From the IMG/VR virus record IMGVR_UViG_2563366768_000003: a stretch of DNA of 52,523 nucleotides; one strand, 5' to 3'. The DNA is from a virus. Its lineage: Duplodnaviria > Heunggongvirae > Uroviricota > Caudoviricetes. Position numbers: made by a program. Of the stretch, positions 39,001 to 51,000 are shown piece after piece. Positions within the stretch are counted from its first letter, which is position 1, and every line of letters starts with the position of its first letter.

Positions 39001-42000
39001 GCAATATGGGATACGGTTTACTGGATATTGCAAATCAGTCGCGGCGTGAGGCATTACAGGGAATAAGTGACGCAGACAGACGACGTGAAGAAATTGAGGC
39101 TGCGAACAAACAGATGGCGGCGCAACAGAAAGCGCAGAACAAGCAGAATATCGGTACGGGCATTGGTACGGGGGCGGCTATTGGCGCATCCGTTGGTGGT
39201 CCTGTTGGTGCTGTTGCTGGAGCAGTAATTGGCGGCATTGCTGGTTCTTTGTTTTAAGGAGTGGTGAATGAGCGGATTTGCACAGGGGTTACTTGCCGGA
39301 TTCAGCACCGTTGACCAGGCAATGACCCGTCGTAAGGAGCTTGGTCTGCGTGAAGCACAGCTTGCCCGGCAACAGAAAAATAACGAGCGCGATTTTGAGT
39401 TTGCGCAGTCTCAGTTTGAACATAATAAAAACGTTGATCAGCGGAACTTTGATTACAGAGCCAAAGTTGACGACCGTAATTATGCACTGAAGGAGAGGGA
39501 GTTTAACGCTAACCAGAATTACCGGAATGCGTCACTGGGTATGGAGCAGCAGCGACTCCAGTTGCAGAAATACAACCAGCGACGGCTTGAGTATAACGAT
39601 ATGATTGCCCATAGCCAGCCACTAATGGAAGCGCTTGGAAAAGCAATTGAGGCTGGCGATCAGGAGGCTGCAACGCGTCTGTTCGGGCAGCTGCCAAAGG
39701 GACATCCATTAATTCTTATGTCAAACGAAGGCTATGCAGCGAAAGCGGGTCAGGCCGTGATCAACCTGCAAAAAATCTTTGGTGATAAGCCGGACATGGC
39801 GATCGATTCGCTGAATACCCCGGAAAATCTCGATGTGCTTTCCGGCGTGTTTGCCCCGGAACTACAACAGCGTATTGGCATGCCTGATTCAACCGGGGAC
39901 AAAACGATAAAAGAGGCCAGGATTGGCAGTATCGTACCAGCGCAGCAGGAAGGGTACGTACTTATTGGCCTTGATCTCACATACAGCGATGGCTCCACCG
40001 CGCATAAACCTGTAACAGAATACGGCAGTGCGCACCCTGATGATCAAACCGTGCTGGCGATACCCGTTGATAAGGCTATCGCTCAGGTCAGGGATCGCAG
40101 CAAATTTGCAGAGATATCGAAAAATTATGGTTATTTTATGCCGAAGCAGCAGGGACTTTCTCTGAAAGAGCTTCAGAAGGGGGCCAGCAACGTAGCGGCG
40201 GACGCGATCAAGAATGGCGGTAATGCTCAGGCTGCGGTGGATGAATATTATGCTGCGACTGGTTCACAACCGCATCAACAGAAAATTCAGCAACAAAAAC
40301 TTCAGCAACAGGTTATCAACTGGGCGGGAGATGATCCTGACAAGCTGTCATTTGCCAGAAATGTAGCGGCCCGTCAGCCTGAAATGCTGGAACCTCAGAA
40401 TCAGAAATTGCTGGAGAACGGGTATGCGAATTTTCTCCGTATTCAAAAGGCCAGGGGGGAACAGGCCAGAGATGAAAGTGCTTCATCTGCATCTCAGTTT
40501 ATCCGTGGACTGAAACAGAATTACGCCCAGTAATTCACGATATTCCATTAATACCATTTCCTGATGCCCGGCCATTGTGCCGGGTTTTTTTATGGAGTCT
40601 GTATGGCCTATTCAGAGGAACAGCGTCCTGAGGCGCAACTCGGTAACCAGAATCGTAACAGCCTGAACATTCAGCAACCCGGCGAAACTGACAGCTATGA
40701 AGCATTTTTCTCTGATCCGAATCGCTGGAAGGATAACAGTACGTCGTTCAGCCTGGGCGATGTATTGCCAACAATGGGTAAAGGTTTCGCCCAGTCCGTC
40801 CGGGGAACAGGGGAAATGGCCCGTGGACTCGGTGATGCGATGATTCAGAGCCCGGTAAAAACAGGGGCGCGTATTTTAAATGAGTTCAGCCGTATGGGGC
40901 TGCCGGGTGTCGCAACTGTGCAGGATATTTTTGCCGGTGGCAGCAGGGGGGCTGATGAGGTCATCGATACCCTGCCTGATGGCAAAAACGCGGTTACTGA
41001 TATTGTCGGTAAAGGTCTGAAGGCAACCGGTAAGGCTGTCAGTGATGGTGCCAAAGCCACTGATGAATGGCTGACCGGTAAGATGTCGCCGGGTGCAGTT
41101 CGTGCGCTGAATACGCCGATGACCGAAGGCTATAATGATTCTGCGGTCTGGGTGGCGAAGGGTGTAAACCTGATTGGTGCGCTTGTACCTGATATGGTTG
41201 CTGGCGGTGTGGCTAGAAAGGTGGGTGATGTCACACTGCGAAAAATGCTGACCGCCGGGCTGGAGAAAAAATACATCGCGGCAGGGATGCAGCCGGAAAG
41301 AGCCACGGCACTGGCAGCAGAAGCTGTCGATAAAAAAATGCCGGATTTATTCCAGGCGGGCCTGATCACCCATTCCACTGTAAGTGCACAGGGGCAGAGT
41401 GCAATGGCGGCAGCAGATGCTGTTCTTAATGCTGATTACTCTGAGCTGGCGCAGTCACCGAAATTTCAGCAGACGTTTTTGTCCATTGACGCCGACCCGC
41501 AGCACGCACAGCTTACTGATCGCCAGAAAATGGATCTGGCAAAAGAGCGTGTTGCCGATGAGGTGCGCGCGCAGCTGGCAACCGATCCTGAATTGCTGGC
41601 TGTGAATGCCATGGCGGCAAAACTGGGTGACGCACAACTGTTTAATCTGGTGACACGAGGCACAGCGAAGACCGTTAAAAGCGGCATTGTCAGAAATGCC
41701 ACGGAACAGGGGGCGATTAATGCGGCGCAGGGCGGCTATTCACGCTATCAGGAAAACACGGCATTGCGTGAGACCGCCGGAATGGGTGTGTCACCGTGGG
41801 AGGGCGTGGCTGACGCAACGATCGAAGGTGCAGCCTTTGGTGCTGCGATGGGGGCTCCATTCGGTGCGGTTGCCGGATATCGTGGCAGACGTCAGGCCGC
41901 AGAAGAAACCGCCATGCGTGATGCTGAAACCGTGCAGCAGGACGACGCAGCCCCGCAACCAGAATCTGTTGATCCGGTGGCGCAGCAGCGTGAATCCATG

Positions 42001-48000: not shown

Positions 48001-51000
48001 GTGGCGGGTGAGGATGATGACGGGGTTAACTGGTATGACAAGGTGCCGTCTCATGTGAAAGAGCGTAACCTCGTCATTATGAAATCGGTGTTCGGGGGCA
48101 AGGCCGGAGAGTACTGGAGTATTCCTCTGCCTTACGGGTACAACGTTTTCTTCCTGCTCGGGCATACTGCTGAAGGTGTGGCGGCGGGTGACCTGACGGC
48201 GTCCCGTGCTGCCGGTAATGTTGTTGGTGGTGTGCTTGGTGCATTCAGCCCGATTGGCAGTGAGACGTCGGAAACACTGTCCGGGGCATTGCTGAAAAAT
48301 GCAGCGCCGACCATTCTGCGTCCGTTTGCGAACCTTGCCATGAATGAAAACTTCATGGGGGCGCAGATTTACCAGGAGAACATGCCGTTTGGTACACCAA
48401 AACCTGACAGCCAGCTGGGAAGACGTTCAACGCCAGAAGCGTACAAGGCGTTTGCATCCTGGCTGAATGCGTTCTCAGGTGGCAGCCAGTACCGTCCCGG
48501 CGCGGTGGATATCACACCGGAATCGCTGAAATTCTGGATTGACTATATCTCCGGAGGGACAGGGCGCTTCATTTCCAAAACCACGGATGCGGCGGTGAAA
48601 TCGCTGAATGGTATTGATATACCGGAACAGCAGGTGCCCTTCCTGGGGAAAATTTCGGGGGAGGTGATGCCGTATGCAGACCAGCAGAAGATGTACGACC
48701 GGATGACAGAGATTGCGCAGTATCACGCAGAGCTGAAGAGTCTGACCGGTGCAGAAAGAACGGCGTTCATTGACGAGAACAACGGAAAATTGTCGATGAA
48801 CGGGCTTATGCAGGATACCCGGAAGAGACTGAAGGATTTGCGTAAACAGCGTGATGCCATTTACGCCGACAGTACTCTCAGTCTGGCGCAACAGTCGGCG
48901 ATGGTGAAATCGGTAGAGCGGGATATGAAAATTGCCGTGGATCGGTTTAACCGCGAGTACAACAAAAAAGTGGGAGTGGATTAACAGAAATGGCCCCGTA
49001 CGGAAGTGCGGGGCTGATTAAGAAATAAACACTCATTGACCTGTAATAACCGGAGCTATTAACATATAGTCAGAAGAGCATTTCATGTGATACAGAGAGC
49101 CGATTTATGTTTAATGAAGAAAAAGTTGCGCAAATGGCAGCGTATTTGCTGAAAAAGCATGGCGGATCTATGCGTTTCATTAAGCTGAAGCAGCAACGGT
49201 AATGGCGAATAGCATTTATGAGCAAAATAATCTTGATATGTTATTAGGCGATCTGATGTAACCGGGATGATGTTCACCCCTTATCGCCGGGGAACAATAC
49301 CGGCAATCAGAATTGCGGATGGAACTATTCAGGCCCACGATGATATCGATGAGGAGTTTTTTCAGCCAGTATTGGATGGCTTTCTTATATCCAAATATAC
49401 GCCATTTGACATCCTCCACGCCCTGAAGGACGGGGTTTTACAGCGCACCGGATAAGATTCGGTGTTTTGTTGAAAAATACTGTGATAACAAACAGAAAAC
49501 CCGTCAGTAAGACGGGCTTAGCAAGCTGGGACGGTTACTTTAATAATTTCAGTGCCTTTACATCCACTTCAACACTGCTCAGGTCTTTATCAATTTCACC
49601 CTCAATTCTTACTTTGTCTTTCGGAGAAACATTCTGACCGGCCCATATGCTGTCATCGATATCCGTGACAATTGTCCCGCTATTGTCACGAAACTCATAA
49701 CGTTCATCACCCACTTTTTTAACGATGCTCCCTTCAAGGATAACCCATGCATCATCCTTCAGTTCTTTTGCCTGCGCTACTGTTGAACGCTCTGCTTCAG
49801 GCCCTTGGAAACCGCCCTGCTGTGCAAAAGCGCCAAAAGACACACCAGAAATAAGTGCTGCAATCAATACCTTTTTCATTCATAGTCCTCTTTCAGAGAT
49901 GAACATTCAAACAGCATTTTCAGTATGGTAAAGCGCGGGTGCGTTGAGGATGCCTGACACATCAGAGGTGGCGGGAGATTACTCCCCCGCTTGGTCTCTT
50001 ACTTCTCAGATTCGTAGTCTACGAAGACAGCGACCTCCGTCTGACCGGTTCGGATTCGCACCTCGCAGAGGTCTTTCCTCGTTACCAGTGCCGTCACTAT
50101 GACGGTTAAACAGATGACGATCAGGGCGATTAACATCGCCTTTTGCTGCTTCATAGCCTGCTTCTCCTTGCCTTTCGGCACGTAAGAGGCTAACCTACAT
50201 GTGTTCAGCATGGATTGAGCCTCAGATTAATGTTAAGCGTCTTGCCGGACGCGTAATGTTAACTGGGGCTTTTCTCTATCTGCCGTTGGTGTTCATGCCC
50301 GAGGCAGATAGCCTCAAGCACCCGCAGCAATTCTACTTAACTCTCCTTTTCCCGCAAACCGTTTTTATCTCCAGCGACAAATCGAATACACAACCAGCAC
50401 CACCGCCATTACTGTTCCTACATTTGCGAATGCTTCAGGCCAGGTCATTGATTCACCTTCTGCTCAATATTTTTAAGGTCATTTTCCGCATACAGTATTG
50501 CAGTTCTTGCTGCCCGCAACCGTGCTTTGGTGTTCTTTTCTTCACGCTCGAGGCTGGCAACAGATTCTCGGAGCTGATCGTGTCTGTTATGAAGCTGTCT
50601 AATCTCTCTCACCACAGCCTCACCATCGTTCGCACACCGCAGAACATACTGAAAAGGGTCCACAACACATCCGCACTGCAAGCACAGGATAACGTGATCC
50701 TGTTCATGAACCTCAATGGCCCGATGCTTACAGCTCTGTTGTGTGTAGTTTTTTCTGCCAGTTACTGTAATGTTCAGCAGCTTCTCTTCATCGCGCTTTG
50801 GCTGCACCAGTGTGATGATATTATCGCCTTCATTTTCCATCAGTTCACCTCCTGCGGCGGTTCTGGTAGCGGCATCCAGTGTGACGGTTTCCACGACGCA
50901 CCAGGAATTATCCACCCATCATTAGCGTCAGGATGCCCCGGGATGTAAGTCGCCCACTTCATTCGCCAGTCACCTTTCCTGTCAAACTCCACGGCAACAA

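Follow-up and report, generated by a model that had tools for sequence, protein, structure and literature searches.

A giant, probably ejected polyvalent protein with predicted zincin-like domains is encoded at the end of the virion operon of a 933W-type phage

The viral DNA analysed here, called the window throughout, is the whole stretch of 52,523 nucleotides in IMG/VR record IMGVR_UViG_2563366768_000003 (Caudoviricetes). Its plus strand, to which all window coordinates below refer, carries a giant open reading frame (ORF) at 40603..48984 that comprises 8382 bases and encodes 2793 amino acids (aa) plus a stop codon. The gene is 100% identical in nucleotide sequence to its counterparts in phage 933W, Stx2 phage I, VT2-Sakai (Sp5) and many others, and 186 records of Shiga toxin (Stx) phages carry it at 90% identity or above over its full length. 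On the strength of this identity, we assign the window to a 933W-type Stx2-converting podophage (Sepvirinae, Traversvirus). The encoded protein is the same as 933W L0134 (NP_049532), Sp5 ORF80 (ECs1242) and phi24B gp47, and it matches the PHROGs family phrog_616 over its full length. In 933W, where the product (NP_049532.1) is annotated as an "LPD5 domain-containing protein", the gene closes the virion operon, in which the genes for portal, capsid, tail and fibre come earlier. That this protein exists, that it resides in virions and to which general class it belongs has been published before, and our finding is confirmatory in that respect. New here are a more detailed domain map, corrected in part, and a comparison of relatives that separates a putative constant chassis from exchangeable cargo.

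An original prediction, made from the sequence of the window, had described an uninterrupted 8.4-kb frame of 2793 codons occupying 16% of the window and preceded by a terminator and a Shine-Dalgarno sequence, and each of these observations holds. At the base composition of the window, the chance of 2793 stop-free codons is ~1e-63. A terminator-like hairpin with a T-run (40566..40592) lies between the upstream virion gene at 39268-40533 and the giant gene; the hairpin itself spans 40566-40585, has a 7-bp stem with 6 G-C pairs, and is followed by the T-run. The Shine-Dalgarno sequence GGAG (40594..40597) is located 5 nucleotides ahead of the ATG at 40603. Other start points are in use: the ORF listing gives the open frame as 40564..48984, or 2806 aa counted from the first ATG, which is also the RefSeq start in 933W, and the phi24B proteomics database holds the gene as a 2811-aa stop-to-stop frame. 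We consider 40603 the likelier start, because the in-frame ATG at 40564 lies inside the hairpin and is not accompanied by a ribosome-binding site. Translation from 40603 yields exactly 2793 aa, the same length at which Sp5 ORF80 is annotated (PMC5155283).

Experiments by others on the same protein define much of its biology. Deletion of Sp5 ORF80 eliminated both plaques and lysogens, and the defect was rescued in trans; lysates of the deletion mutant contained DNase-resistant DNA at the wild-type level and normal-looking heads, to which an anti-tail-fibre antibody did not bind, an observation given in the paper as "data not shown" (Mondal 2016, PMC5155283). The same authors proposed that ORF80 acts in tail assembly and, based on a match to COG1483, that it contains an AAA+ ATPase domain (PMC5155283). 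The phi24B counterpart, gp47, was detected by mass spectrometry (MS) in purified virions but is absent from the cryo-electron microscopy (cryo-EM) map, and the authors suggested that it is packaged for ejection and digests peptidoglycan by means of a "MuF-C metallopeptidase" (2026 preprint, bioRxiv 10.64898/2026.04.10.717836). According to the supplement of that preprint, gp47 has 10,962 spectral counts, second after the major capsid protein with 17,998, and is found mostly in the top gel slices; its peptides cover N-terminal, middle and C-terminal parts (bioRxiv 10.64898/2026.04.10.717836). A crude length-normalised spectral count for the unfractionated sample corresponds to ~20 copies of gp47 per 12 portal subunits, with an error of about two- to three-fold, given that the same calculation recovers 6 copies of the nozzle and 352 copies of a capsid protein versus 535 expected. 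Together, these studies show that the protein is essential and can be supplied in trans, that heads are assembled and filled with DNA when it is missing, and that it is part of the virion yet not seen by cryo-EM. The original prediction that the protein is internal to the virion, is ejected and has several domains is in line with the phi24B proteomics, the absence from the cryo-EM map and the essentiality in Sp5, and its presence in particles, on which that prediction depended, is established by the abundance of the identical gp47 in purified virions.

Domains were assigned by using Pfam, NCBIfam and PHROGs. LPD5, LPD1, MuF_C and LPD38 all score far above their Pfam cut-offs, and PHROGs returns, in addition to phrog_616, families of other giant phage proteins that match over part of the length. 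The Pfam peptidase families all remain below threshold. The N terminus had been described as glycine rich, which holds only to a modest degree: glycine accounts for 11-14% of the first 200 aa, and the region is at least equally rich in alanine. A conserved N-terminal domain (aa 161-408; 41083..41826) is 29% identical to aa 126-372 of the giant protein of Vibrio phage D62, and aa 170-439 match phrog_37568, whereas no Pfam model covers the domain. The relation to Vibrio surfaced with tblastn and BLASTP only, and a k-mer-limited search of 5.8 billion proteins with the N-terminal 450 aa found close relatives in enterobacteria only. Hydropathy peaks are modest and fall at aa 181-200, within the N-terminal domain, and at aa 2445-2467. 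At the end of the domain lies a glycine-zipper-like segment, IEGAAFGAAMGAPFGAVAGY (aa 406-433; 41818..41901), which is matched by Pfam Gly-zipper_YMGG with an E-value of 0.031, below the curated cut-off.

The next ~450 aa (aa ~445-900; 41935..43302) are of low complexity, charged, and rich in proline, glutamine, glutamate and arginine, with a hydrophobic fraction of 0.12-0.24 per 50 aa. Neither a family match nor tandem repeats were found in this segment, which by its composition is probably a disordered linker. Beyond it is the LPD5 module (aa 905-1200; 43315..44202), in which Pfam PF18799 covers aa 1051-1200 (E-value 6.5e-45). Conservation of the module begins upstream of the Pfam boundary, at a EDFGEEIKGAAK motif near aa 905, and the consensus DFGEKIxGARKD...PLSK...ALRD, taken from a 66-sequence alignment (A1), fits aa 905-975 by eye. 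Variants of the gene in E. coli form many clusters at 80-93% identity in the N-terminal 450 aa (40603-41952), but mostly retain 95-97% identity in the C-terminal part (46120-48981), which suggests that the N terminus is evolving faster or is mosaic.

The HExxH segment noted in the original prediction, ALAHEWFHSLDNYF, is present, and its HEWFH core corresponds to aa 1284-1288 (44452-44466). This motif sits in the gap between the Pfam LPD5 and LPD1 matches, within a zincin-like metallopeptidase domain, which we call domain 1 (aa 1201-1440, including LPD1 at aa 1361-1440; 44203..44922). The NCBIfam model CLCA_X spans aa 1182-1437 as one unit, with an E-value of 9e-44 and a score under the curated cut-off. 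In a set of 51 homologues that share 46-66% identity with the query and are non-redundant at 80% identity, residues H1263, E1265, H1284, E1285, W1286, H1288, D1291, E1375, R1379 and E1382 are invariant and E1337 is conserved in 96%; the pattern was confirmed on alignment A1. An AlphaFold2 model of aa 1040-1460, built from 66 sequences, has a mean pLDDT of 90.2 and a pTM of 0.82, and runs from a helix through three strands to the HExxH helix, after which come more helices. The signature of phage-type metallopeptidases described by Iyer et al. in 2017 consists of a histidine where strand 2 ends and an aspartate three residues past HExxH (PMC5512222), and domain 1 fits it through H1263 and D1291.

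Because of these invariant H...HExxH..D residues and the zincin-type model, HEWFH is best placed in a predicted zincin fold, and a non-peptidase structure for the region, which would have spoken against the original prediction, is not what the model indicates. The third zinc ligand could be E1337, located 49 residues past H1288, or the fully conserved E1375, each of which lies in a predicted helix. "LPD1" is, in our reading, the C-terminal helical part of this peptidase domain, since the two are contiguous and constantly co-occur, and since the glutamate, arginine and glutamate (E1375, R1379 and E1382) are invariant. Domain 1 resembles protein endopeptidases (lethal factor, Pro-Pro endopeptidases, MtfA and neprilysin) and not the families of peptidoglycan peptidases. 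Sequence identity to anthrax lethal factor, the Pro-Pro endopeptidases (M34) and the MtfA zincins is only 12-13%, and domain 1 is set apart from them by a long insert that separates the HExxH helix from the conserved helices following it.

A second HExxH motif, HEIIH (aa 1551-1555; 45253-45267), was overlooked in the original prediction. It belongs to a metallopeptidase-like domain at aa ~1500-1645 (45100..45537), referred to as domain 2, for which there is no Pfam model. An exhaustive HMMER search with aa 1441-1750 recovered 418 cluster representatives, mostly within proteins of 2000-6000 aa, and in a 144-sequence alignment the conserved positions are H1551 (98%), E1552 (100%), H1555 (100%), Y1596 (92%), E1607 (99%) and E1614 (91%). 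E1607 is 52 residues from HExxH, a spacing like that of lethal factor-type zincins. When domains 2 and 1 were compared with hhalign, strand 2, strand 3 and the HExxH helix were aligned with a probability of 67% and an E-value of 5e-5. Pfam searches with six sub-segments at E<=10 and with solo domain-2 homologues gave only motif-level, sub-threshold hints of the peptidase families M76, M10, M78 and M13, and the PDB, searched by sequence with the complete protein as well as with a domain-2 profile, gave nothing meaningful. We propose with moderate confidence that domain 2 is a second zincin-like peptidase domain.

A MuF_C domain follows at aa 1750-1839 (45850..46119; Pfam PF18819, E-value 1.3e-17, 64 bits versus a cut-off of 27.6). 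MuF-C is the PBECR domain, a predicted ribonuclease (RNase) with the fold of barnase, EndoU, colicin E5 and RelE, in whose active configuration a histidine is found in the first helix and a serine or threonine in strand 4 (PMC5512222). The corresponding residues here appear to be H1752 and S1816, each conserved in 97% of 37 sequences non-redundant at 70% identity, where the placement of H1752 on the helix and of S1816 on the strand was deduced from their order. MuF_C is therefore described here as a predicted RNase-like domain with an intact His/Ser pair, from which we infer RNase activity. Since MuF-C is a PBECR RNase-like domain (Iyer 2017), the "MuF-C metallopeptidase" of the phi24B preprint is a mislabel; the HExxH domains are those at aa 1201-1440 and ~1500-1645.

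The remainder of the protein is occupied by a conserved C-terminal module of 910 aa (aa 1885-2793; 46255..48981), mostly alpha-helical with one small beta domain. It includes LPD38 (aa 2476-2681; 48028..48645; Pfam PF18857, E-value 7.8e-48), and the moderately hydrophobic helix at aa 2445-2467 stands directly before LPD38. The module behaves as one conserved block, with 33-77% identity over ~95% of its length in 37 diverse proteins, and it ends at the last residue in all of them, while the domains on its N-terminal side vary and include methyltransferases, ART, GGDEF, InPase and LPD3. Conserved motifs are HAPERN...GSGM, YVPLKG, NTSYNPEF, TVNFNRxGE, DDDG..WYDKVP and PLPYGYN, and the AlphaFold2 model of the module has a pLDDT of 82.4 and a pTM of 0.79.

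Relatives of the C-terminal module occur in podophages of ~60 kb that infect Vibrio, Ralstonia (GP4-like) and Burkholderia (Bcep22-like, with the annotation "DarB-like"), and weak matches are found in the Bacillus phages Page and Pascal. The 3066-aa protein of Vibrio phage D62 shares exactly three blocks with the giant protein, namely the N-terminal domain, domain 2 and the C-terminal module. In Ralstonia phage YL2, the homologue (1420-14721, 4433 aa) has an SLT lytic transglycosylase domain at aa 46-138, an Eco57I-like methyltransferase and LPD3; the SLT domain is what would be expected of a protein that crosses the cell wall. In Burkholderia phage JC1, the homologue is encoded at the end of the virion module and was found in virions by MS, and the phage has portal, capsid and head-closure proteins homologous to their 933W counterparts. 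In each of two metagenomic phages, a series of large late genes likewise ends with the gene that carries the C-terminal module, and in one of these (L004, 3386-14251), a 2181-aa gene that lacks any Pfam match directly precedes a 1416-aa gene ending in the module, such that the giant protein appears to be split over two genes. Methanosarcina virus MetMV (MK170447.1, 5584-14592) encodes a 3002-aa protein with a weak domain 2-like HExxH segment, whose last ~900 aa align with 92% of the C-terminal module of the giant protein at 28% identity. If the host record of MetMV is right, the C-terminal module would not be specific to Gram-negative envelopes. Two small islands, in Amphritea sp. (L002, 10001-12946) and Gracilimonas sp. 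(L003, 10001-13999), also contain LPD38-bearing genes with the module, together with an integrase, an excisionase or AlpA, and a few early-type genes. They may be satellite-like elements with a giant virion protein of their own, or decayed prophages.

Because D62 shares just these three blocks, we read the N-terminal domain, domain 2 and the C-terminal module as a likely constant chassis, and the LPD5 module, domain 1 and PBECR as exchangeable cargo. The two HExxH domains and this chassis are missing from published annotations.

Four genes lie upstream on the same strand, and Pfam assigns a function to none of them (37816-40533). They encode proteins of 243 aa (37816-38547; phi24B gp51), 148 aa (38550-38996; phi24B gp50), 83 aa (39006-39257) and 421 aa (39268-40533; phi24B gp48), and the phi24B counterpart of each was found in virions by MS. 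The 83-aa product is a glycine-zipper protein, called "bacteriocin" in 933W and 86 aa long in phi24B, and the 421-aa product is essential as Sp5 ORF79. The four genes and the giant gene likely constitute a cluster for internal or ejection proteins that act as partners. Elsewhere in the window, the plus-strand region 12652-14234 contains three tRNA genes, which ARAGORN calls as Met-CAT, Arg-TCG and Arg-TCT, and after them two ORFs that encode 319 aa and 89 aa. From their size and position in 933W, we take these two ORFs to be stx2A and stx2B, the expected toxin locus.

Several narrower assignments of the giant protein were tried and rejected. An AAA+ ATPase of the COG1483 type was discarded, as the pattern [AG]xxxxGK[ST] has 0 matches in 2793 aa and Pfam and NCBIfam report no ATPase family. 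Membership of the DarB group was discarded, as the LPD38 region alone matches and neither an N6-adenine methyltransferase nor a helicase is present. No polymerase family in Pfam or NCBIfam corresponds to an N4-like virion RNA polymerase, and the type of T7 gp16 or the P22 E-proteins is recognizable neither by sequence nor by fold, with no similarity to solved ejection proteins and no lytic transglycosylase. Defence-system models in PADLOC also gave no match to the giant protein.

The protein carries several unrelated effector-type domains in one polypeptide and is encoded among late and virion genes, as is characteristic of the "polyvalent proteins" defined by Iyer et al. in 2017, to which its Pfam domains also belong (PMC5512222). 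We consider it likely that it is a polyvalent internal virion protein of the 933W-type (Sepvirinae) Stx podophages, composed of chassis and cargo and ejected into the cell. Such a protein would be made late, from the last gene of the virion operon, and multiple copies would be packed into the T=9 head in no ordered symmetric position or, alternatively, be stored partly in the portal or tail channel. On release of the needle, it would exit through the portal and tail. The chassis (aa 161-408, ~1500-1645 and 1885-2793) could supply the essential function, in that it may direct incorporation and tail passage and would probably form, or help to form, a conduit across the cell envelope. The variable middle, with the LPD5 module, metallopeptidase domain 1 and PBECR/MuF_C, might then be cargo delivered with the DNA. 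After delivery, the two zincin domains would most likely cut the polyprotein itself, and perhaps host proteins, which could set free both the RNase-like domain and the LPD5 module. For the polyvalent class, Iyer et al. make the case that the metallopeptidases process their own polypeptide (PMC5512222), and the proteases here may likewise serve self-processing rather than attack. Ejection, conduit formation, self-processing and RNase activity are thus the elements of this model that we infer.

A number of observations weigh against such a model. Absence from a symmetrized cryo-EM map is an indirect indication of an internal location, and ejection into the cell is a further step of interpretation. 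Catalysis by either HExxH domain is putative, as is zinc binding by domain 1. No strong transmembrane helices were detected (best Kyte-Doolittle peaks of 1.2-1.4), the giant protein has no cell-wall hydrolase domain, and comparison of the C-terminal module with solved structures revealed neither an analogue nor significant similarity to ejection proteins or channels. A conduit specific to Gram-negative envelopes is too narrow a description, given the C-terminal module of an archaeal virus, and no recognizable capsid or tail genes lie within 10 kb of the C-terminal module genes in the Amphritea and Gracilimonas islands. Mutants lacking classic ejection proteins look normal. The missing fibre-antibody signal on heads of the ORF80 deletion mutant fits tail assembly better (PMC5155283), and because of it our reading leaves room for an additional role in stabilizing the tail.

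In the explanation offered by Mondal et al. in 2016, the phage needs the protein to build or attach its short tail, perhaps with the protein working as an energy-using AAA+ machine, and being an ejected effector is not its main role. The mutant heads are filled with DNA and look normal but do not bind the anti-tail-fibre antibody, and a match to COG1483 (AAA+) was reported (PMC5155283). The phi24B authors, for their part, suggest that "internal tail contents" may constrain the orientation of the tail; part of the giant protein could thus reside in the portal or tail channel and stabilize the tail. We nonetheless regard a primary function in tail assembly as unlikely. A Walker A motif is absent from the entire protein, and Pfam, NCBIfam and PADLOC yield no ATPase family; the phi24B tail is fully built from other proteins, whereas the abundant gp47 is absent from the map; and the antibody result was "data not shown". 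A structural contribution from inside the channel is, moreover, compatible with an internal and ejected protein.

The original prediction viewed proteins of this kind as aimed at host defences, and the protein could be accessory cargo for anti-restriction or anti-defence, like P1 DarB, with its proteases and RNase hitting defence proteins or RNAs. The polyvalent class was indeed proposed to counter host defences (PMC5512222), one PHROG match is to "DarB-like antirestriction" proteins, and DarB-like methyltransferase domains are found in the relatives from Bcep22-like and Ralstonia phages. However, plaques and lysogens absolutely need the gene, while DarB matters only in restricting hosts. Because the phage cannot do without the gene even when the host is E. 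coli K-12, its core role points to entry or structure and not to accessory anti-restriction, and in this respect the emphasis of the original prediction may be misplaced. The DarB-like match (phrog_10089) is also limited to the LPD38 region (aa 2351-2681), methyltransferase and helicase domains are absent from the giant protein according to Pfam and NCBIfam, and it is the end modules that are conserved, not the enzymatic cargo. We therefore judge an anti-defence function to be quite improbable as the primary one. Least probable, and very unlikely, is the cell-wall-degrading ejection protein suggested in the phi24B preprint, whose metallopeptidase would digest peptidoglycan so that the conduit reaches the inner membrane. 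HExxH peptidase folds are predicted, and the SLT hydrolase of Ralstonia phage YL2 implies that this protein family does meet the wall, but the preprint pins the peptidase on "MuF-C", which is an RNase-like PBECR domain, the zincin domain is like protein endopeptidases and unlike peptidoglycan peptidases, and Iyer et al. favour self-processing (PMC5512222).

A broader and decidedly more tentative possibility, which we think has some merit but would not expect to be correct, is that the N-terminal domain, domain 2 and the C-terminal module form a previously unrecognized ejection machine made of a single polypeptide. Such a machine would stand in for the ejectosomes that P22 and T7 build from three proteins, with cargo that is exchangeable and self-released, would work across Gram-negative and possibly Bacillus and Methanosarcina envelopes, and would have been borrowed by small satellite-like integrative elements that lack capsid genes.

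Phages of the 933W type spread Shiga toxin genes among E. coli, and the mechanism by which they enter cells is poorly understood. The giant gene makes up ~14% of the genome, is essential, and encodes one of the most abundant virion proteins. A residue-level map, with two predicted protease sites, an RNase-like site, and end modules distinguished from cargo, makes the entry of DNA and effectors experimentally addressable, and it corrects two published annotations, namely the suggested AAA+ ATPase and the "MuF-C metallopeptidase" label.

The closest known counterparts, phi24B gp47, Sp5 ORF80 (ECs1242) and 933W L0134, show no sequence difference from the giant protein. Polyvalent proteins as a class are likewise very large chains that join numerous unrelated domains and whose genes neighbour virion genes, and LPD5, LPD1, LPD38, MuF-C/PBECR and the zincin metallopeptidase signature are common to both; the class is also encoded by conjugative elements, and 933W is not named in the main text of the paper (PMC5512222). 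In contrast to the published scheme, LPD1 would act here as the C-terminal part of the metallopeptidase and not as a separate domain, and LPD38 represents only ~200 aa of a conserved 910-aa module. The "DarB-like" proteins Bcep22 gp75, JC1 gp69 and those of GP4-like Ralstonia phages are also products of the last gene of a podophage virion module, were found in virions by MS, and share the C-terminal module at 27% identity over >80% of its length. These proteins are longer, however, at 4400-4600 aa, and contain an SLT transglycosylase, an Eco57I/DarB-like methyltransferase and LPD3, none of which is present in the giant protein.

Among ejection proteins, P22 gp7, gp16 and gp20 and T7 gp14, gp15 and gp16 are described as internal podophage head proteins that number ~10-30 copies, exit together with the DNA and assemble a conduit across the envelope (PMC8402733). 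Like the giant gene, their genes are near tail genes and are needed for infectivity, but a single 306-kDa polypeptide with enzymatic cargo stands here in place of three smaller proteins, and the lytic transglycosylase of T7 gp16 has no equivalent in it. The virion RNA polymerase of phage N4 (3500 aa) is similarly giant, resides in a T=9 podophage head and is injected, and it includes a zincin metallopeptidase domain related by HHpred to lethal factor (PMC5512222), whereas the RNA polymerase module that defines the N4 protein is absent from the giant protein of the 933W-type phages.

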